Below are positions 1 to 21,985 of a stretch of 32,000 bases of DNA, piece after piece. A program made the position numbers and the translations under genes. Every line of letters starts with the position of its first letter. Position 1 is the stretch's first letter. Below the pieces are notes generated by a model. It had not been told where the DNA came from. It worked only from the letters and a program-made list of their open reading frames with translations, and did not search any database. Source of the stretch: Nitrospira tepida (GTDB lineage: Bacteria > Nitrospirota > Nitrospiria > Nitrospirales > Nitrospiraceae); the NCBI RefSeq assembly GCF_947241125.1, contig NZ_OX365700.1, forward strand, positions 1,787,245 through 1,819,244, written 5' to 3'.

Positions 1-975
1 GACTGTTCCGCGCTGGAGCGGGAACAACAGGCCGTCGCCTCACAGGATCTCTTGCGGGCGCTGAAAGACGGGCAGGGCGTCGACCTCCAAGGAGTTCTGG
101 TAACCGGCGATCTGAGCTTGGATGCGGTGCCGGTCGCATCGGACGAACAGATGCGAAAACTGCCCGTAGCGGTGCGTGACTGGATTGCGCGGCAAGGCAC
201 CCAGGACATTCGCCTTGTCAGGGGCGGGATTGCCATCCGGGATTCCACGGTGCGGGGATCGATAACCCATCGCAGCAAGCAAGGATACCTGCTGATCGAG
301 GGGCCGGTGACGATGGCCGGCACGAGGTTCGAGGGATTCCAGGACTGGTCGCGGGTCATCTTTCTGGGTCCAGTGGACTGGTCCGGCGCAGAATTTGCGC
401 GCGAAGGATTCTTTGTGCAGGATCGGTTCTGGCACGACGCGACGTTCGATCGGACGACGTTCAGCGGCCGATCACGATTTCACCGTGCGCACTTTCAGGA
501 AGCGGTGTCCTTTCGCGAGGCCACGTTCAACGGATTGGCGGAACTGTTGGAAGTGACCTTCCAAGGACCGGCGCGCTTCGCCGGCGCCCGGTTCACGCAG
601 GGCTCGGGCTTCTCCGGAAGCCATTTTCATTCGGTGGCCGATTTCTCGCGGAGCCTGTTCGAACGGGAGGTCTATTTCATGTTCACGGTCTTTGAGCAGC
701 CTGCCTTGTTTCGCGGGGCGGGCTTTCGTTCGGTCAACAGTTATGCGGATGCGGAGTTCAATGGGACCGGGGATTTTTCGACCGCCGTGTTCGAGCAGGC
801 GCCTGAATTTATGAGGACGAAGTTCAAGGGAGAGCGGTTGTTGCCCTCCAGCGGGTCCGCGTCCTGGCCCGTCTATCTGCCGGTCTATCTGGTTGCGGCG
901 GTCGCCGTGATCTTCACCCTGTTGATCCTCAAGCAGACCTATCGATCGCGAAGCCCGTCCAGCCGAAACGGCTGA
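1..975 (+). CDS. Pentapeptide-repeat-like protein with C-terminal transmembrane anchor (5' end probably outside the window)
   Basis: The frame is open from nt 1 with no upstream stop, and the tracked start at 52 is TTG. There are long runs of 5/10-residue periodicity with F/L at the central position (ATFDRTTFSGRSRFHRAHFQEAVSFREATF...). A hydrophobic C-terminal segment follows (WPVYLPVYLVAAVAVIFTLLIL). Confidence 0.55.
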   Translation, partial: DCSALEREQQAVASQDLLRALKDGQGVDLQGVLVTGDLSLDAVPVASDEQMRKLPVAVRDWIARQGTQDIRLVRGGIAIRDSTVRGSITHRSKQGYLLIEGPVTMAGTRFEGFQDWSRVIFLGPVDWSGAEFAREGFFVQDRFWHDATFDRTTFSGRSRFHRAHFQEAVSFREATFNGLAELLEVTFQGPARFAGARFTQGSGFSGSHFHSVADFSRSLFEREVYFMFTVFEQPALFRGAGFRSVNSYADAEFNGTGDFSTAVFEQAPEFMRTKFKGERLLPSSGSASWPVYLPVYLVAAVAVIFTLLILKQTYRSRSPSSRNG

Positions 976-1084
976 AAAACCTACCACATATAGAGTTTTG
1001 GCTTGCCCCTACCCCCAATAAGCTGCTATAAGAAAAAACGGCCCGCCTTGTACGAGAACATTCAACTATAAAGCCGAGGATACT

Positions 1085-1852
1085 GTGGAGCAGGTCGAAC
1101 TTCCCTATCAGGTCCGACTTGAGAAGTTTGAAGGTCCGCTCGATCTGTTGCTCCACCTCATCCGGCAGAACCAGATCAACATCTACGATATTCCGATCGC
1201 GCTGATTGCCCAGCAGTATCTCGACTATCTGGAAACCATGCGCTCGTTGAATCTGGCCGTGGCGGGAGAATTCCTCGTCATGGCCGCGACCCTATTGCAG
1301 ATCAAATCCCGCATGTTGCTGCCGGTGGAGGAGCGCGCCCTTGACGACGAGGACGGGCCCGATCCGCGCGAAGAATTGGTCCGTCGTCTCTTGGAGTACA
1401 AGCAGTTCAAGGAGGCGGCGACTGAACTGGAAGACCAGTCGCGGCGGTGGCGGAACGTCTTCACCAGGCCGCCTGAACCCTTGCCGGCCGAGGAACCGGA
1501 GGAATATCTCGCGGAGGATGTCTCTTTGTTTGAGTTGGTCGATGCCTTGCACGACATCCTTGCCCGTACGCCGGCCGCGACCGTCATGGACATCATTCCC
1601 GATCACCTGACGGTTCGGAACCAAATGAATGTCATTGTGGAACGGCTGGAGGCTCGGGAATCGGCGACGTTCGGTGAGTTGTTCGAAGGGCCGATCACGC
1701 GGGCGATGGTGATCGTGACGTTCCTGGCATTGCTCGAATTGATCCGGCTGCGAATCATCCGCGCCTATCAAGCGGAGTTGTTCGGCACGATCCTGATCTC
1801 GCGGACGTTTACGGCTATGGCCGACGTCGAAGACCAGGTCGAAGAGAGTTAA
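1085..1852 (+). CDS. scpA: Segregation and condensation protein A (kleisin of SMC complex)
   Basis: The N-terminus FEGPLDLLLHLIRQNQINIYDIPIALIAQQYLDYL is the typical ScpA signature. GTG start with GAGGA 8 nt upstream, and scpB follows immediately. Confidence 0.9.
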   Translation: MEQVELPYQVRLEKFEGPLDLLLHLIRQNQINIYDIPIALIAQQYLDYLETMRSLNLAVAGEFLVMAATLLQIKSRMLLPVEERALDDEDGPDPREELVRRLLEYKQFKEAATELEDQSRRWRNVFTRPPEPLPAEEPEEYLAEDVSLFELVDALHDILARTPAATVMDIIPDHLTVRNQMNVIVERLEARESATFGELFEGPITRAMVIVTFLALLELIRLRIIRAYQAELFGTILISRTFTAMADVEDQVEES

Positions 1853-3066: not shown

Positions 3067-6027
3067 ATGAGTCTCACCTGGCTTTTCGAGGAAGAAGATC
3101 ATCGATCCCGCCTGCTGCTGTCCGCCCAGTCCGGGTCGGACGAGTGGGGGACCGGCGAAGTGACGGCAGAAGAAGAACTTCCTCCCGCGCCGGCGAATCT
3201 CAAGGCTCAGCCGGGCAACGGCCGTGTGTTGCTGACCTGGGACCCGGTTCCGGACGCCATGTACTACAACATCTACTACATGACGACCAAAGGCGTGCAG
3301 ATCAAATTCTCCGAATTGACGCGGCCGATCGCAGGCCCCCAGGACTTCAAGACCAAGATCGGTGTGACCAAAGAAAAGGGCACCTGCATCGAAGGCCCCT
3401 CCTCGCCCTACCTGCATGAAGACCTCGCCAACGGCACCTGCTACCACTATGTCGTCACGGTGGTCACGCAGAAGGGGGAAAGCCCGGAGTCCGAAGAAGT
3501 CATGACGATTCCGTCGCCCTATCTGGTCGCCCAGATCATCGGCTGCGAGGGGGTGGATGACGGCGAATTCAACTCTCCGACCGGGGTCGCCCTCGACAAG
3601 GATGGCAATATCTACGTGGGCGACACCGACAACCATTCGATTCAGAAATTCGACAAGACCGGCAAGTTTCTCGCTCGGTGGGGCGGCAATCCCGGGGCCG
3701 CCGAGGGCGAGTTTTATTATCCGCGCGGTGTGGCCGTCGGGTCCGAGGGCGAGGTGTACGTAGCGGACAGCGGGAACAACCGTATTCAGAAGTTCGATTC
3801 GGACGGCAACTATATGCATACCTGGGGCAAATTCGGCTTTGCCTGGCGAGGCGCCGACATCGGGCGTTTCGATGTGCCCTGGGGAGTGGCGACCGACCGC
3901 GAAGGCAACCTCTACGTGTCGGACACGAGCAACGCCCGCATTCAGAAGTTCGCCCACGACGGCACGCCGCTCCTCAAGTGGGGGCGCGATGGCAGCTATG
4001 ACGGCGCATTTTTCTACCCGCGGGGCATTGCGGTCGATTTCGTCGGAAACATTTACGTGTCAGAAGAGGGGAACCACCGCATCCAGAAATTCGACACCCG
4101 CGGGAGTTTCCTGACGAAGTGGGGGCGCGAGGGCGGCGGACCGGGGCAATTCAAGCGTCCCTGGGGCGTCGCCTGTGACGCCATGGGGTACGTCTATGTT
4201 GTGGATCAGGAGAATCATCGCATCCAGAAGTTCGACGGCAACGGGACCTTTCTCTGTTCGTGGGGCAACCGGGGTCTGAGCGAAGGCCAGCTCAATTTCC
4301 CGTCCGGCATCGCCATCGACAAGGAAGGCAACGTGTTCGTGGTGGACAGCGGCAACAACCGCATCATCAAATACGTGCCGACCGAAGAAGAGCTGAACCG
4401 CACGCTCCAGGCGAAACGGGAGGAAGCCGGGGACGACAAGACTCCGCGCGGCGTCGTGGCCAAGGCCGGTGATACCGAGGTCACGGTGAGCTGGATGGAG
4501 ATGCCCGGAGCCGTCTCCTACAACCTCTACTTCAGCACCAATTCCGGCTTCACGAAAGAAGGGGCCACCAAGATTGAAGGCGTGGAGAATCCCTATGTCC
4601 ATAGCGGGCTCAGTAACGACACCGCCTATTATTATGCGCTGACCGCGGTTTACGAAGGCGAGGTCGAGAGCGGGCTCTCGGCGGAGGTGACGGCAACCCC
4701 GGTGCTGATCGACATGACCGCGCCGCAAACCCCGTCCGCCGTGATCAACCACGGCGCGTTCATGACCAATACCCCGGAAATCATCGTCACGATTTCGGCC
4801 AACGACGTGGATTCTGGTGTGGGGGCCTACTACATCTCCGAGAACCCGATGGCTCCGATGGCCGGCAGTCCCGGGTGGGTGGAGGTCGAGCCGGCCCTGA
4901 AGTTCGGAGCGACGATTCCGTTCGTGCTGTCGCCGGGCGACGGGCAAAAGACGATCTACGTGTGGTTCAAGGATCTGGGGCAGAACATTTCGGTCCCGGC
5001 CAGCGCGACGATCCTGGTCAATACGTCGGGTTATCTCTGCGTGTCGAAGTGGGGGAAGCCGGGACGTGGAGCCTCCTTGCTGCACGGCGGCGAGTTCATG
5101 CCCCCGTTGTATGGCTTGGCCGTCGATCAACAGGGCGGCGTATTCGTGGTGGACAACGGCAACAATCGCGTCCAGAAGTTCGACAGCGCGGGCAATTTCA
5201 TCATTCTCTGGGGGTCGTTCGGGTCGGCCAACGGGAGCTTCCACAACCCGACGGGAATCGCCTGCGACGCGAAGGGCGACGTGTGGGTGGTGGACACCAA
5301 CAACCACCGCGTGCAGAAGTTCGATGGCAAGCTCGGCGGCTACCTCATGAAGTTTGGCTCGCGAGGCAACGGCGAAGGACAGTTCAACGCGCCCTGGGGC
5401 ATCGCCGTCGACCGCGTGCGGGGCTATGTGTACGTGGTGGACAGCGCGAATTTCCGCGTGCAAAAGTTCGACCTCACGGGCGAATTCATCATGGCCTGGG
5501 GCAGCTTCGGCAACCACGACGGGCAGTTCTATTTTCCGCGCGGCATTGCGGTCGACGAATCCGACGGGTCTGTCTACGTCGTGGACATGGGCAACCACCG
5601 CATCCAGAAGTTCGACACCAGCACGAACGTCTTGCCGCAACTGTTGACCAAGTGGGGCGGTAGCGTGGACGCCGGCCATGCCAGCAGTCCGACCGCGGTC
5701 GAGGCGGGGCAGCTTCGGAACCCGTGGGGCATCGCGGTCGATGCCAACGGGGATGTCTATGTGTCCGACGCCGGCAACCATCGGATCGAAAAGTTCGACC
5801 GCGAGGGCAATTTCATCACGCAATGGGGCGGCTTCGGCAACGGCGACGGGCAATTCAACTTCCCCTATGGAATTGCGGTGGGTCCGCGGGGCAGCATCTT
5901 CGTCGTGGACAGCGCTAACGCCAGAATTCAGCAGTTCATGCCGGCGGAAGAAGGAGAAGAGCGGCTGAGGGAGGAGGCGGAAGCGGCCGCGGCGTTGAGC
6001 GACCAGCGGACCGCGCAACCGTCCTGA
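3067..6027 (+). CDS. Large NHL-repeat protein: two six-bladed-type NHL propeller regions separated by FN3/Ig-like modules
   Basis: About 12 or more repeats of the motif P.GVAVD..GN(I/V)YV.D..N.RIQKFD..G.F...WG. FN3-like segments are present (PANLKAQPGNGRVLLTWDPVPDAMYYNIYY; AKAGDTEVTVSWMEMPGAVSYNLYF). Confidence 0.85.
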   Translation: MSLTWLFEEEDHRSRLLLSAQSGSDEWGTGEVTAEEELPPAPANLKAQPGNGRVLLTWDPVPDAMYYNIYYMTTKGVQIKFSELTRPIAGPQDFKTKIGVTKEKGTCIEGPSSPYLHEDLANGTCYHYVVTVVTQKGESPESEEVMTIPSPYLVAQIIGCEGVDDGEFNSPTGVALDKDGNIYVGDTDNHSIQKFDKTGKFLARWGGNPGAAEGEFYYPRGVAVGSEGEVYVADSGNNRIQKFDSDGNYMHTWGKFGFAWRGADIGRFDVPWGVATDREGNLYVSDTSNARIQKFAHDGTPLLKWGRDGSYDGAFFYPRGIAVDFVGNIYVSEEGNHRIQKFDTRGSFLTKWGREGGGPGQFKRPWGVACDAMGYVYVVDQENHRIQKFDGNGTFLCSWGNRGLSEGQLNFPSGIAIDKEGNVFVVDSGNNRIIKYVPTEEELNRTLQAKREEAGDDKTPRGVVAKAGDTEVTVSWMEMPGAVSYNLYFSTNSGFTKEGATKIEGVENPYVHSGLSNDTAYYYALTAVYEGEVESGLSAEVTATPVLIDMTAPQTPSAVINHGAFMTNTPEIIVTISANDVDSGVGAYYISENPMAPMAGSPGWVEVEPALKFGATIPFVLSPGDGQKTIYVWFKDLGQNISVPASATILVNTSGYLCVSKWGKPGRGASLLHGGEFMPPLYGLAVDQQGGVFVVDNGNNRVQKFDSAGNFIILWGSFGSANGSFHNPTGIACDAKGDVWVVDTNNHRVQKFDGKLGGYLMKFGSRGNGEGQFNAPWGIAVDRVRGYVYVVDSANFRVQKFDLTGEFIMAWGSFGNHDGQFYFPRGIAVDESDGSVYVVDMGNHRIQKFDTSTNVLPQLLTKWGGSVDAGHASSPTAVEAGQLRNPWGIAVDANGDVYVSDAGNHRIEKFDREGNFITQWGGFGNGDGQFNFPYGIAVGPRGSIFVVDSANARIQQFMPAEEGEERLREEAEAAAALSDQRTAQPS

Positions 6028-17910: not shown

Positions 17911-19194
17911 ATGCCAAGCGATCAACGGCCTGAGACTCACAAAACAGTCTTCATCAGTTATCGACGACGGCAAAGTTGGCAAACTGCGCGCCTCATATAC
18001 TCGCATCTACGCGCGCATGACTATGACGTCTTCATGGATGTCGAGAGTATCGACAGCGGCCAATTCGATACCATTATCAGGAATCAAATCGCGGCGCGGG
18101 CGCATTTTCTAGTTGTTCTCGGTCCTGGTTCGATGGAAGGCTTCGACAATCCTCAAGATTGGCTCCGTCAAGAAATCGAGCATGCCATCAGCTTAGAACG
18201 TAACATCATTCCGATTCTTGAAGAGGGTTTCAAGTTCGAGAAGATCACACCGCCCCCAGGTCGGCTACAAGAACTGCCGAGGTACAACGCCCTCACCGTG
18301 CCACATGAATACTTCGACGCAGCCATGCAGAAGCTCCGGGAACGATATTTAAGAAAGCCGGTGCAGGGACCAATTCAGGCGACACCGGAGCGTGAAATAC
18401 CCGCTGTCGAGCAAAGGCTTGAAAAGACACGTCAAGAAATCGCTCGTGAATCCGCAAGGGAGGACCCAAAGCCATCCCCTGGTGCTCCTTCAGCGAGGCC
18501 GCGAGTGGAGTCACGGTCGGCCGAAGCGCCAGCCGGCATGGTGAAAGTGCCCAAGGGCCCGTTCCTCTACGGGGAGGATAGACATCGTGAGACGATCGAT
18601 CATGATTATTGGATCGGCATCTATCCCGTGACGAACGAGGAATTTCGTGCCTTCATCTTGGCGGGTGGCTACGAAAATCAGGCCTACTGGTCCCAAGAGG
18701 GGTGGAGATGGAAGACGGAAGAGAACATTCGGATTCCGGCGTCTTGGAATAACCCCAAATTTATTAAGCCCGACCATCCAGTGGTTGGGGTGAGCTTTCA
18801 CGAAGCTCAGGCCTATGCCACCTGGGCGCGCAAGCGCTTGCCGACGGAACAGGAGTGGGAAAAGGCGGCAAGGGGCACGGACGGGCGCATCTACCCCTGG
18901 GGTGACGAGTTCGATAAGAACAAATGCAACAGCCTCGAATCCCGTCTGGATAGCACCTCGCCTGTCAGCAAGTATCCCGAGGGCGTGAGCCCGTATGGTT
19001 GCTACGACATGGCCGGCAACGTGGGGGAATGGTGTGCGGTTTGGTATGAACAGAAACAACTTCCTAGTGCGGTCCGGGGCGGGGCCTGGTGCCAGAAGTC
19101 ACCGTCCCTGCGTGCCTGGCGACTTTTCCATATCGAGCCCGGCGGCCGGGACAGCTCCCTCGGGTTCCGTCTGGTCCAGGACATTTCCGAATAA
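17911..19194 (+). CDS. DGR target protein: N-terminal TIR domain, charged/Pro-rich linker, C-terminal FGE-sulfatase (SUMF1-like, C-type-lectin fold) domain carrying the VR
   Basis: TIR_2-like N-terminus KTVFISYRRRQSWQTARLIYSHLRAHDYDVFMDVESIDSGQFD...HFLVVLGPGS...DWLRQEIEHAI...IIPIL. FGE-like C-terminus MVKVPKGPFLYG...YWIGIYPVTNEEFRAFI...HPVVGVSFHEAQAYATWARKRLPTEQEWEKAARG...GNVGEWC...VRGGAW...LGFRLV. No signal peptide or TM segment. GAGG lies 8 nt upstream of the ATG. Confidence 0.8.
   Translation: MPSDQRPETHKTVFISYRRRQSWQTARLIYSHLRAHDYDVFMDVESIDSGQFDTIIRNQIAARAHFLVVLGPGSMEGFDNPQDWLRQEIEHAISLERNIIPILEEGFKFEKITPPPGRLQELPRYNALTVPHEYFDAAMQKLRERYLRKPVQGPIQATPEREIPAVEQRLEKTRQEIARESAREDPKPSPGAPSARPRVESRSAEAPAGMVKVPKGPFLYGEDRHRETIDHDYWIGIYPVTNEEFRAFILAGGYENQAYWSQEGWRWKTEENIRIPASWNNPKFIKPDHPVVGVSFHEAQAYATWARKRLPTEQEWEKAARGTDGRIYPWGDEFDKNKCNSLESRLDSTSPVSKYPEGVSPYGCYDMAGNVGEWCAVWYEQKQLPSAVRGGAWCQKSPSLRAWRLFHIEPGGRDSSLGFRLVQDISE
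19069..19194 (+). repeat. Variable repeat (VR) at the 3' end of the target gene
   Basis: Aligns without gaps (offset 1639 nt) to 20708-20833. Where the other copy has AAC/AAA codons, this copy has TGC, CAG, AAG, TCC and CGA. Confidence 0.6.
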
Positions 19195-19238
19195 CCCTTT
19201 GCCCTTTGTCCTTTGACCCTTTACCCTTCCGAAATGCT

Positions 19239-19267
19239 CCCTCTCCCGAATTGTGATTGGGAGAGGG
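19239..19267 (+). other. Perfect 9-bp stem hairpin downstream of the VR
   Basis: CCCTCTCCC (19239-19247), an 11-nt loop, then GGGAGAGGG (19259-19267), 45 nt after the target stop codon. It is absent downstream of the TR copy. Confidence 0.5.
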
Positions 19268-19283: not shown

Positions 19284-19640
19284 ATGGCCACCACTCTTCC
19301 GCAAGCCGTGCAAGCCTGCCACGAGTTGCTGCTCTGGCTGATCCCGCAGCTCGACAAATTTCCCCGCTCGCGCCGGTTTACATTGGGCGAACGGTTGGAG
19401 GCCGGGTCGATCGAGGTCTTGGAGCTGCTGGTTGAAGCGGCCTATACGCACCATAAGACAGCCTCCCTGCATCGCGCGAACCTGCGATTGGAAGTCGTGC
19501 GCCATCTCTGGAGGCTGGCTCACGAATTGAAGGTGATCGCGTTGCGCCAGTATGAGCATGGCGCGCGGCTGTTTGATGACCTTGGGCGGCAGATCGGCGG
19601 CTGGCTCCGCAGTCGCGATCCGTCTCAGATGCAGCCATGA
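19284..19640 (+). CDS. avd: DGR accessory variability determinant (Avd, four-helix-bundle protein)
   Basis: About 118 aa. The segment CHELLLWLIPQLDKFPRSRRFTLGERLEAGSIEVLELLVEA...LRLEVVRHLWRLAHELKVI matches the four-helix-bundle / Avd family pattern. It sits between the target and the RT. The stop overlaps ATG 19637 (ATGA). Confidence 0.85.
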   Translation: MATTLPQAVQACHELLLWLIPQLDKFPRSRRFTLGERLEAGSIEVLELLVEAAYTHHKTASLHRANLRLEVVRHLWRLAHELKVIALRQYEHGARLFDDLGRQIGGWLRSRDPSQMQP

Positions 19641-19712
19641 CACGCCTTGCCAATCTCTGGCCGGAACTGGTGAGTTTTAAGAACCTACTCGACGCGTATC
19701 GGAAGGCGCGCC

Positions 19713-20711
19713 GTGGGCAGTGTTGCCGTCGCGGAGTTCGGCCTGAATCTGGAGCGCGAACTGTTGCGCTTGCGGCGCGAGCTTCAGGACGGGACGTATC
19801 GCCCAAGCAAGTATCGTCTGTTCACGATCTACGAGCGCAAGCCGCGCGTCATCGCGGCAGCGCCGTTTCGCGACCGGGTTGTGCACCACGCGGTCATGAA
19901 CGTGATCGAACGGCCGCTCGCCCGGACGTTTATCGAGGATTCTTACGCCTGCCGCCACGGCAAGGGGGTCCATGCGGCGGTGGACCGCTATCAAGCCTGG
20001 GCGCAGACCTATCGGTATGCCCTGAAAATGGACGTGCGCCAGTACTTCCCGTCCATCGATCACGACCTTCTGAAGGAAAAGCTGCGGCGACGGATCACAG
20101 ACTTGCGCGTCTTGGACCTGCTTGATCGCATCATCGATGGATCTCCTGGAGGAGACAGTGAGCCCCATTACTTTCCCGGCGACGACCTCTTCACGCCGAT
20201 CGATCGGGCCGTGGCTATTCCCATCGGCAACCTGACGAGCCAGTTCTTTGCCAATCTCTATCTCGACGATCTGGATCACCATATGAAGCAGGTCCTGCGG
20301 GTCCGGCCGTACCTTCGCTACGTGGACGACATGGTGGTGCTGGACCAGGACAAGACCCGGTTGGCAGACATTCGCGCAGCCGTCCGTGAGCGGCTTGCCG
20401 CCGATCGGCTCAGGCTCCATCCCGATAAGGCCCATGTGACGCGCACGGCCGATGGGTTGAACCTGCTCGGCTATGTCGTGTTCCCGAATCGCCGTCGGTT
20501 GCGGAACGACAACGGCCACCGGTTCGCGCGCCGATTCCGCCGGATGGCGCGGGCCTATGGAGCCGGGCGACTGGAATGGGTCAAGGTGGCGGCCTCGGTT
20601 CAGAGTTGGATCGGGCACGCTCAGCATGCCGATACGGAGGGCCTGCGCCGGGCGATCTTCTCCCAGGCTGTGTTTACGAGGGGAGCGGGCCAAGCGACGG
20701 CCTGCGCGTGA
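19713..20711 (+). CDS. DGR-type reverse transcriptase (core ORF); the apparent N-terminal about 26 codons lie in another frame at 19637-19715
   Basis: RT motifs are present: AAPFRDRVVHHAV, YALKMDVRQYFPSIDH, the DGR-diagnostic IGNLTSQFFANLYL, YLRYVDDMVVL, LHPDK and LGYVV. The frame starting at ATG 19637 encodes MTRLANLWPELVSFKNLLDAYRKARRG, which resembles the usual DGR RT N-terminus. Confidence 0.85.
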   Translation: MGSVAVAEFGLNLERELLRLRRELQDGTYRPSKYRLFTIYERKPRVIAAAPFRDRVVHHAVMNVIERPLARTFIEDSYACRHGKGVHAAVDRYQAWAQTYRYALKMDVRQYFPSIDHDLLKEKLRRRITDLRVLDLLDRIIDGSPGGDSEPHYFPGDDLFTPIDRAVAIPIGNLTSQFFANLYLDDLDHHMKQVLRVRPYLRYVDDMVVLDQDKTRLADIRAAVRERLAADRLRLHPDKAHVTRTADGLNLLGYVVFPNRRRLRNDNGHRFARRFRRMARAYGAGRLEWVKVAASVQSWIGHAQHADTEGLRRAIFSQAVFTRGAGQATACA

Positions 20712-20833
20712 TCCGTGGCGGTTCCTGGAACAACAAACCGGAGAACCTCCGTGCCTCGAACCGGTACGGGGTCCAGGCCGGCGGCCGGGACGGTACCATC
20801 GGCTTCCGTCTCGTCCAGGACAGGGACCAATAA
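20708..20833 (+). repeat. Template repeat (TR) of the DGR, non-coding
   Basis: An adenine-rich copy of the VR, reading V I R G G S W N N K P E N L R A S N R Y G ... G F R L V Q D. It starts at the RT stop codon. It shares the identical blocks GGCGGCCGGGAC (20780-20791 = 19141-19152) and TAACCCTTTG with the VR copy. Confidence 0.65.
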
Positions 20834-21154
20834 CCCTTTGTTCCCTGACCCGTTGCTCTCCTGAAAGAAATTGCCCCGTCCCTTTCTCATGAGAACAGGA
20901 AGGACAGAGACCATCGTCTGTCCCTCAAGACCCACCGTCCAGCCTCCGAGTCTCGATCAACCGCTGCCAATGGGAGGACGCAACGATCGGATGACGACAT
21001 GGTTCTGACGATCCGGCACCCAAGCTCAATGTGCCGATCGCACGGCAGGAGGTGACAGCAGGAGAGGATGTGAGCGGCGGCGTCGGATTTCGTGCGTTTT
21101 CTCGTGCGCTGTGGCCTATGGTATGATCCATCCCAATCGAGGATCGCCGCGTAG

Positions 21155-21451
21155 ATGGAATTCGAGTGGGATTTATCAAAGGAACTGAGGAACATACGCA
21201 AGCACGGGGTGACATTTTCAGAAGCGGTGGAATCGTTCCTCGATAAGAAGGGTTTTCAACTCGTTGACGCGAAGCATTCTGTGAAGGAGAAGCGGTTGTT
21301 CTGGGTGGGTCAAACCTCGACAGGACGGCTCATCACAACACGGTTTACCATGAGAGGCAGCAGGATTCGTCTCATTGGATCAGCCGAATGGCGAAAGTTT
21401 CGGAGGTTATACGATGAGAGAACCAAAGCTCGAACACCTGAAGGTGGATGA
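21155..21451 (+). CDS. brnT: BrnT-family (DUF497) type II toxin
   Basis: MEFEWDLSKELRNIRKHGVTFSEAVESFLD matches the feWD..K...N..KHGv.F.EA signature. About 98 aa, and it overlaps the downstream antitoxin ORF. Confidence 0.8.
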   Translation: MEFEWDLSKELRNIRKHGVTFSEAVESFLDKKGFQLVDAKHSVKEKRLFWVGQTSTGRLITTRFTMRGSRIRLIGSAEWRKFRRLYDERTKARTPEGG

Positions 21452-21692
21452 GGCAGGCACGGCCAAGCTTCGGGCAACATTTGCGCGGCAGAAGGCTGTA
21501 CGAATCACCATCAATATCGATCCCGGAAGCTACCGAGGTCTGAGACGGGTTGCTCGGGAGACCGGTGTGCCTTATGAAACCTTGATAAGCTGGCTCTTGA
21601 GGATGGACGAGGACAGGCGAGCCACCATGGAGACTCGCCTTAATCGGCTGGAGCAAGAAGTCAAAAGAATGAAGCGGATCATGGTTGCCTGA
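21414..21692 (+). CDS. brnA: BrnA-like antitoxin
   Basis: VRITINIDPGSYRGLRRVARETGVPYETLISWLLR resembles the BrnA pattern (a ribbon-helix-helix-like region with the G.PYQTLI motif). ATG 21414 is preferred over the tracked start at 21375. It overlaps brnT by 38 nt. Confidence 0.7.
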   Translation: MREPKLEHLKVDEAGTAKLRATFARQKAVRITINIDPGSYRGLRRVARETGVPYETLISWLLRMDEDRRATMETRLNRLEQEVKRMKRIMVA

Positions 21693-21820
21693 ACGCTGTC
21701 GACGATGGTTGACCCTTCTCCTTCCGGTCGTCCTGTTCGTACAGGAGTCGATGATTACCGACTCTTAAACAGTGTCCTTCTCCGCCGGACGTTTGATCAA
21801 CTGGTGTGACCACCGGTGTC

Positions 21821-21855
21821 GGCGTCCGTCTCGTCCAGGACCTTCCCTAACCCTT
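21821..21855 (+). repeat. Orphan third copy of the VR/TR 3' end
   Basis: GGCGTCCGTCTCGTCCAGGAC matches the TR (GGCTTCCGTCTCGTCCAGGAC, 20801-20821) at 20 of 21 positions. It is followed by ...TAACCCTT as in the VR and TR, and no homologous gene body lies upstream (in-frame stop at 21794). Confidence 0.45.
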
Positions 21856-21985
21856 GAAATCGACGGACTCGATCAGATGCCGCTCACGACGGGGGTGATG
21901 ACCCTACACGCCGGCTAAGCAGTCGGCTTGCACATCCACCTTCATTCCAGCGGGAGGTCCCCGCCTGCAAAGGCCGGGGCGGGAT

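Follow-up and report, generated by a model that had tools for sequence, protein, structure and literature searches.

The DGR locus of Nitrospira tepida

We analysed a stretch of 32,000 nucleotides (nt) from the genome of Nitrospira tepida (RefSeq assembly GCF_947241125.1, contig NZ_OX365700.1, positions 1,787,245 to 1,819,244; hereafter the window, numbered from its first letter). It contains a chromosomal diversity-generating retroelement (DGR), which is a member of a large Nitrospira DGR family. The element comprises a target gene ending in a variable repeat (VR), the accessory gene avd, a reverse transcriptase (RT) gene and a presumptive template repeat (TR). We found that the presumptive TR is a recombinant between a TR and a VR and that the RT gene is frameshifted, and we consider it likely that the element no longer works. 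Its principal features are as follows.

17911–19194, plus strand: target gene with TIR and FGE domains, 427 aa (CAI4031355.1 / WP_289268283.1)
19072–19179, plus strand: VR1, the 108 nt that match the family TR (alignment to family TRs)
19284–19640, plus strand: avd, 118 aa, intact (CAI4031357.1; Pfam bAvd, NCBIfam NF033474)
19637–19714, plus strand: RT codons 1–26 (MTRLANLWPELVSFKNLLDAYRKARR), in a different frame from the remainder
19713–20711, plus strand: rest of the RT frame, 332 aa from a GTG (Pfam RVT_1; CAI4031358.1)
20711–20764, plus strand: genuine 5' half of the TR (comparison with family TRs)
20765–20833, plus strand: VR-derived 3' half of the 'TR' (substituted family-invariant adenines, a VR-type end and TAA)
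20834–20880, plus strand: 3' flank of target-gene type beside the VR-derived half (local alignment with 19202–19243)

The order on the plus strand is target, avd, RT and TR, with the TR beginning at the RT stop codon, and the three annotated proteins are recorded as a TIR protein, 'Diversity-generating retroelement protein Avd' and an RT. The original prediction, made from the letters alone, had recognized VR, avd, RT and TR as a DGR, and this identification held. The best solved-structure match of the RT is the Bordetella DGR RT (8ub7, E = 7e-41), and the motifs YVDD and IGNLTSQ are present. Avd scored 97.3 bits against NF033474 DivGenRetAVD (cut-off 80) and 61.8 against Pfam bAvd (cut-off 40), and has 118 aa in the window as in relatives. 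In the target, Pfam TIR_2 covers residues 13–114 (E = 1.2e-11) and FGE-sulfatase residues 208–422 (E = 4.7e-53), and the VR encodes residues 388–427 of 427, at the C terminus of the C-type-lectin (CLec)/FGE-fold domain. The TIR domain weakly matches that of the Thoeris type III protein ThcB4. Pfam detected no central STAND NTPase (nSTAND1/NACHT) in the 427-aa target; nSTAND1 is present in three relatives (L019, L020 and L022), and the shorter TIR–FGE architecture is itself common.

For comparison we used 4 loci fetched through RT homologues and 80 from metagenomes, cited where necessary by an L number. About 100 Nitrospira RTs are about 72–86% identical to that of the window, nearly all are 360 aa long, and they adjoin avd and a TR. 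Homologues of the TIR/FGE protein number more than 7000, mostly from Nitrospira, with C termini that fit the variable pattern RGGSWxxxPxxLRxSxRxxxxxxxRxxxIGFRLxQD. By its RT clade, its Avd and its CLec target, the N. tepida locus is thus a DGR; it lacks the functional hallmarks of one, namely an intact RT, TR/VR differences confined to adenines, a structured RNA domain adjoining the TR, and VR polymorphism.

Non-adenine mismatches between the repeats

A per-base recount of VR 19072–19191 against TR 20711–20830 (ungapped, offset 1639) gave 40 mismatches in 120 nt, 14 of them at the 24 TR adenines and 26 at the 96 non-adenine bases, exactly reproducing the earlier count by hand and its collinear alignment. 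The synonymous third-position changes that had been listed (CGT/CGG, GGT/GGG, CTC/CTG and GGC/GGG) are present at positions 6, 12, 39, 93 and 102. When the 96 non-adenine positions were placed along both strands of the window, the VR was the best site with 26 mismatches, and the runner-up had 47. Homology between the two repeats runs about 45 nt beyond their shared TAA stop, with one 7-nt indel.

In the 25 relatives whose RT has 75% identity or more, the TR consists of 108 conserved nt, rich in AAC codons, beginning at the RT stop. The VR of the original prediction, with its end at 19191, therefore reaches beyond the family TR by the four codons that precede the stop. Over the 108 nt proper, the window has 22 non-adenine and 13 adenine mismatches. 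We found a VR in 36 relatives, and compared with their own TRs over the same length, 24 of the 36 had 0–3 non-adenine and 9–20 adenine mismatches. The remaining 12 had 6–29 non-adenine mismatches when aligned without gaps; in three of these that we inspected, the high counts arise from indels in the VR. The suggested comparison with related loci thus showed adenine-dominated pairs, and the earlier judgement that the non-adenine differences are abnormal was correct (22 here, mostly 0–3 there). As a separate observation, VRs of some active relatives carry small indels besides their adenine changes: that at L020:5423-5546 has a net gain of 3 nt over L021:2867-2974, and that at L022:5410-5536 has a 1-nt gap against its own TR.

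Compared with family TRs, the 26 non-adenine mismatches fall into four classes. At 15, the local TR equals the family consensus and the VR deviates (13 lie in positions 12–67). Four are at sites where family TRs have adenine, so that both copies are products of mutagenesis; another four lie past the end of the family TR (positions 109–120); and three are at sites polymorphic among family TRs. Three defects, a hybrid TR, a frameshifted RT and a drifted, frozen VR, together explain the anomaly.

The original prediction had offered other explanations. One was that an avd–RT–TR unit from another lineage had been inserted beside a pre-existing target, and in its favour VR1 is closer to the TR of L019 than to the local TR at a few sites (CGG, GGG, GCC and CTG). 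Those few sites are polymorphic among family TRs, however, and VR1 has at least 17 non-adenine mismatches against any family TR. The order Slp, target, avd, RT, TR, then Zn-peptidase and pseudouridine synthase is moreover kept in the complete genome of Nitrospira sp. CP126122.1, and the element was therefore inherited vertically at this chromosomal site. Between the window and L017, the VR–avd spacer with the start of avd is 81.5% identical and the RT 85.6%. The conserved synteny and spacer contradict such an insertion, which we regard as extremely improbable.

Another explanation was drift: a canonical TR/VR pair would have stopped homing, and point mutation alone would have produced the non-adenine mismatches. 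The 15 VR-private substitutions at conserved sites speak for it, as do the frameshift in the RT and the invariance of the VR across strains that are described below. The structure of the TR speaks against it.

The template repeat is a TR::VR hybrid

The last base of the RT stop codon is also the first base of the 5' half of the window TR, and positions 1–55 of this TR differ from relatives' TRs by only 1–6 non-adenine and 1–4 adenine changes. Among family-invariant sites in this part, 1 of 10 adenines is changed (position 55 itself, at 20765) and none of 26 non-adenines. In positions 56–108, by contrast, 10 of 14 invariant adenines are changed and 1 of 23 invariant non-adenines (Fisher p = 2.7e-5 for adenine versus non-adenine in the 3' part; 0.0045 for adenines in the 5' versus the 3' part). 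The boundary of adenine loss is sharp, at 20760–20765. Since the substitutions in the 3' half are biased to adenines, that half carries the signature of a VR and not of a TR.

The sequence that follows agrees. CAG is the last codon shared; beyond it, related TRs read TCCGCCCGC and the window reads GAC AGG GAC CAA TAA CCCTTTGTTCCCTGACCC. Throughout the family, GAC, two or three further codons, a stop and a pyrimidine-rich flank is the form of a VR end, and the flank motif at 20834–20880 is the same as that of the VR flanks in L052, L056, L065 and L074. The window 'TR' is therefore a TR::VR recombinant, of which the first ~54 nt are true template and the part from 20765 onward is the mutagenised 3' end of a VR. 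The original prediction had named as fatal to its reading the discovery that 20708–20833 belonged to a coding gene; this is half the case, in that 20765–20833 is a former gene end and 20711–20764 a genuine TR.

These findings are difficult to reconcile with drift, which is not adenine-specific and can produce neither the gain of a stop and ~45 nt of flank of the target type nor the loss of the ~145-nt RNA domain described below. We rejected an assembly artefact as the origin of the hybrid: the same junctions occur in a complete genome, in a metagenome-assembled genome (MAG) and in more than 15 independent assemblies. We also considered a GC run shared by the VR and the 'TR', GCCGGCGGCCGGG, as an element resembling a homing signal and rejected it; family TRs have GCCGACAACCGGAAC there, which makes the run a product of adenine substitution.

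There is precedent in the family for a donor VR downstream of a TR. Four loci (L052, L056, L065 and L074) have two targets in the order target, avd, RT, TR, RNA domain, target, with canonical VRs on both sides; the downstream target of L052 is a TIR and FGE protein of 458 aa.

Two other TRs in the family are atypical. That at L036:4496-4580 is shortened by an internal deletion, so that AACCGGAACAACAACATCGG joins directly, and that at L037:4496-4602 has a 1-nt deletion (CCGGGACACAACC). Damage to the template may thus be recurrent in this DGR family.

The structured RNA domain is missing

About 70 related loci carry a conserved domain of ~145 nt on the 3' side of the TR (for example L021:4619-4760 and L019:7191-7335). 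It is opened by TCCGCCCGCACGG, which directly follows the family TR in 23 of the 25 relatives, namely every one whose sequence extends beyond the TR; L034 (GCC for TCC) and L033 (internally) each deviate by one base. We predicted 49 base pairs for the domain, 8 with compensatory changes, and a long-range helix in which the TR 3' end would pair with a downstream CTGGGGTGAGGCG. A search of the 84 related loci with a profile of the domain gave 71 matches at E ≤1e-3. The domain has no counterpart in Rfam, and Rfam and tRNA scans returned nothing in the window or in two relatives.

We observed no such domain anywhere in the window when three of its conserved motifs were searched with up to 3 mismatches allowed, and its profile meets there only the 19-nt end that TR and VR share (at 20801, 19162 and 21821). 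In Bordetella, the equivalent RNA region is required to prime cDNA synthesis. By analogy, the domain may correspond to the RNA spacer region of the Bordetella DGR and would then act in cDNA priming. With neither this domain nor the template adenines of the 3' half, the window TR would therefore not support mutagenic retrohoming.

The sharp boundary could also be read as the outcome of self-homing, in which the TR gained a VR-type 3' end and its own cDNA, mutagenised at adenines, then replaced it as far as a crossover on the 5' side. Retrohoming starts at the 3' end, and an adenine-specific loss limited to the 3' part has the polarity that it would produce; Doulatov et al. (2004) reportedly found in the Bordetella phage that a TR given the VR 3' signal in place of its own became a recipient of mutagenesis. 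This scheme still needs a prior recombination to bring in the stop and flank and take out the RNA domain, after which cDNA synthesis should already have failed, whereas a single TR × VR crossover gives the same pattern in one step. The present data do not separate the two models; on these grounds we hold self-homing to be quite unlikely.

The reverse transcriptase is frameshifted

The canonical N terminus of a DGR RT, MTRLANLWPELVSFKNLLDAYRKARR, starts at an ATG at 19637 that overlaps the avd stop, and the remainder of the protein lies in another frame. The cause is a deletion of 8 nt between 19714 and 19715 (codon 27), which frameshifts the 360-aa family RT: 78 + 8 + 997 nt make 361 codons, equal to the family RT once the 8 nt are restored. 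One contig, L010 (98.8% identity with the window across 1.5 kb of alignment), has an extra GGCAAAGG after 19714 and a continuous frame (...RRGKGGSVAVAEF...). Apart from L010, every assembly examined has the deletion, among them the complete genome and a MAG, and the deletion is therefore no sequencing error. A candidate ribosome-binding site, GGAAGG, occurs within 19698–19715, six bases ahead of the GTG at 19713.

Against twelve relatives, the dN/dS of the window RT was 0.09–0.17, within or near the family range of 0.07–0.16 (mean 0.106), and only 3 private changes fall at the 181 otherwise invariant columns. From this family-normal ratio, we infer that the RT was constrained until recently and broke recently, so that simple mutual drift is not the whole story. 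L010 carries the identical hybrid TR without the RT deletion, and the fusion is therefore older than the deletion.

The same timing counts against drift as the sole cause: with a normal dN/dS and a frameshift absent from L010, the inactivation of the RT is far younger than a VR/TR divergence of ~20%. The original prediction's idea of a cassette left inactive and drifting is thus right about the inactivity and about the 15 VR-private changes. It does not account for the 3' half, which is the mutagenised end of a target gene, nor for the timing, because the RT stayed under normal purifying selection and broke long after VR and TR had diverged. We judge drift alone decidedly unlikely.

The variable repeat is frozen

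The 15 VR-private substitutions are mostly non-synonymous and lie mostly in the 5' two-thirds of the repeat. The closest orthologue of the target, P0019 (81% identical), keeps the canonical VR scaffold, as seen in protein comparison, and the N. tepida target also deviates just upstream of the VR (NVGEW, SAVRGGAW); ordinary mutation has therefore acted on the whole C-terminal region.

Between strains, the VR does not vary. The 427-aa target protein recurs unchanged in 87 indexed sample blocks, and in 9 assemblies the locus is 99.99–100% identical to the window over 7–21 kb. A second strain (L011–L016) shows 36 differences in 14 kb, none of them in the VR or TR, and at 90% identity the target cluster holds 4 sequences with one VR sequence throughout. 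We thus observed no VR polymorphism, that is, no sign of ongoing diversification, across the N. tepida assemblies and the second strain. As a positive control, we compared two samples of an active relative with the same RT protein (L020 and L021): their 108-nt VRs show 22 differences, against only 2 in the other 5.3 kb that lie upstream of position 5398. The target differences of the second strain are all three non-synonymous: M75I, R183K and R307G (at 18135, 18458 and 18829).

The dN/dS of the RT implies that some VR was still being served by it well after drift had set in at the adjacent VR. This would be expected if, as the original prediction also proposed, the RT–TR module were functional, or had been until very recently, with its cognate VR elsewhere in the genome and a mere paralogue beside it; trans-acting DGRs are documented in Thiohalocapsa PB-PSB1 (PMC10907252). 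The adjacent gene is, however, the syntenic orthologue of relatives' targets. The RT carries a frameshift, and the TR in its present state has neither the RNA domain nor, in its 3' half, most of the adenines. The window holds no other TR-like or VR-like match. A search with the 40-aa peptide encoded by the 'TR' returned only four open reading frames of TRs, including the 41-aa one of N. tepida, with a low sensitivity that missed family targets sharing GFRLVQD. The TR 5' half, scanned with its adenines as N against a genome collection, matched only the Nitrospiraceae MAG DATIBM010000397.1, at its TR and VR; the window's own TR did not come back, so that the collection evidently does not hold the N. 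tepida genome. A functional module with a remote target is thus very unlikely.

A proposed history of the locus

Taken together, the evidence makes it probable that this is a non-working DGR with a TR::VR recombinant template and a VR that has long gone unwritten, in which the RT was later frameshifted. Loss of function is suggested by the anatomy of the element and the invariance of its VR. We propose the following order of events. The VR adjoining the cassette would have stopped being rewritten long ago and accumulated ordinary substitutions in its scaffold. The RT would have remained under selection in the service of another VR, as is suggested by its constraint persisting after that drift. 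One homologous crossover at 20760–20765, between the TR and the VR of a second, downstream target in direct orientation, would then have deleted the 3' half of the TR, the structured RNA domain and most of the second target gene. After this fusion the RT would have been dispensable, and the 8-nt frameshifting deletion could have arisen in the N. tepida type strain; another strain, represented by L010, would instead have lost its target and avd.

Several points weigh against this history. A second target downstream of the TR is absent from the closest relatives with sequence there (L017, L019 and L022), and both the donor VR and its position are reconstructed. VR1 and the VR-derived half have the same outcome at five former adenines (GGC GGC CGG GAC), which hints at common ancestry or gene conversion rather than full independence. 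The invariance of the VR is at the level of assemblies, so that low-frequency variants are possible. The GTG start could yield an N-terminally truncated RT of 332 aa, which makes the loss of RT function presumptive. Finally, the search for a remote VR covered the 32-kb window and the collection without the N. tepida genome.

A wider reading is that the hybrid exemplifies a DGR destroying its own template, either by self-homing into a TR with a VR-type end or by TR × VR recombination as a general, built-in failure mode of elements with targets in direct orientation. We find this rather unlikely. If it were true, the order of decay could be dated, with the template lost first, the RT later, and the frozen VR then left to ordinary mutation.

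Flanks and neighbouring debris

The following further features adjoin the element.

19195–19243, plus strand: pyrimidine-rich 3' flank of the target gene (CCCTTTG..CTTTG..ACCCTTT)
19239–19267, plus strand: hairpin 3' of VR1 (9-bp stem, 11-nt loop)
21155–21451 and 21414–21692, plus strand: BrnT toxin gene (Pfam BrnT_toxin, E = 6.4e-16) and overlapping antitoxin-like open reading frame (gene calls)
21819–21850, plus strand: a third VR-type gene end, preserved as a 32-nt relic (TCGGCGTCCGTCTCGTCCAGGACCTTCCCTAA followed by CCCTTG)

The pyrimidine-rich motif of 19195–19243 follows every VR in the family, and this flank is 81.5% identical to that of the orthologous VR in L017. The hairpin beside it has a perfect stem of CCCTCTCCC and GGGAGAGGG, with a fold z-score of only –1.7, and L017 has a hairpin of different stem sequence at the same place. 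Target sites of DGRs carry a hairpin or cruciform 3' of the VR, as in the Bordetella paradigm, and by that analogy the hairpin at 19239–19267 could have the same function.

The relic at 21819–21850 reads GVGVRLVQDLP before a stop, is 89% identical to the VR end of L017 and is also matched by the profile of the shared TR/VR end. There is no FGE coding sequence upstream of it, and besides this relic and the flank we found no second avd or other DGR remnant in 20834–21154 and 21693–21985.

BrnT/BrnA pairs lie at points of DGR disruption in two lineages. In the window the pair (21155–21692) is between the hybrid TR and the VR relic; in L017, a contig of a related MAG, another pair (940-1384, minus strand) replaces avd and the 5' part of the RT. 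The two pairs have no detectable DNA similarity.

The contig L010 (SRR25435851, 1851 bp) begins with 24 nt of the end of the Slp gene, followed by ~297 nt unrelated to the window (together L010:1-321) that partly resemble the region upstream of the L019 target and run into the RT gene at its codon 15. It seems to represent a strain variant in which the target, avd and the first 14 RT codons were deleted, on the evidence of one short and possibly chimeric contig.

Implications and comparison with known systems

Many non-adenine mismatches between a TR and a VR need not imply an unusual spectrum of mutagenesis or a hidden remote target; here they would mark a dead element with a TR::VR recombinant template. 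In DGR annotation, live elements may be told from fossils by comparing the TR with family TRs, seeking the RNA domain after the TR and checking the length of the RT. The hybrid is a tidy, datable example of what is probably the death of an element, and a caution for annotation. Cultured N. tepida would thus carry a frozen TIR–lectin sensor, and many of its uncultured relatives still diversify theirs.

The locus falls within a known kind of DGR, as a degenerate member, and presents no new mechanism. Its nearest counterparts are chromosomal DGRs of Nitrospira and Nitrospirota (L021, L024, L025, L030, L031, L038, L041 and L048), which share the order of a target with a C-terminal FGE/C-type-lectin VR, avd (118 aa) and RT, with the TR at the RT stop. 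The two-target loci and the syntenic CP126122.1 belong to the same family. Members of this family agree with the window in their chromosomal neighbourhood, in the 5' half of the TR and in both the scaffold and the 3' flank motif of the VR, and their RTs are 77–86% identical. In active relatives the RT has 360 aa, the 108-nt TR is rich in adenine and precedes the ~145-nt RNA domain, and non-adenine mismatches number 0–3, whereas the window has a frameshifted RT, a TR with a VR-derived 3' half, no RNA domain, 22 non-adenine mismatches and an invariant VR.

Dore et al. (PNAS 2024; PMC10907252) described a DGR clade that diversifies C-type-lectin 'antigen sensors' linked to STAND and TIR domains, in which loci commonly have two targets. 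In Thiohalocapsa sp. PB-PSB1 they reported 'degenerate' DGR loci with machinery that is missing or pseudogenised, the disruption being heterogeneous in the population. As in the window, those DGRs couple conflict-system domains (TIR and nSTAND1/NACHT there) to a DGR-diversified FGE/CLec domain. Their degradation was attributed mainly to transposons and MITE-like repeats, whereas the window shows a TR × VR hybrid, an 8-nt deletion and BrnT/BrnA cassettes. The window target, with TIR and FGE and no STAND NTPase, is also unlike the TIR–NTPase–CLec sensors.

The DGR of Bordetella phage BPP-1 (8ub7 and related bRT–Avd–RNA structures) resembles the window in its homologous RT and Avd and possibly in a hairpin 3' of the VR, and resembles the Nitrospira family in adenine-specific flow of information from TR to VR and in a structured RNA beside the TR. 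It differs in having a phage tail-fibre target and the order VR, avd, TR, RT, where the window has a chromosomal TIR–lectin target, a TR placed after the RT and what is probably a non-functional copy of the element.

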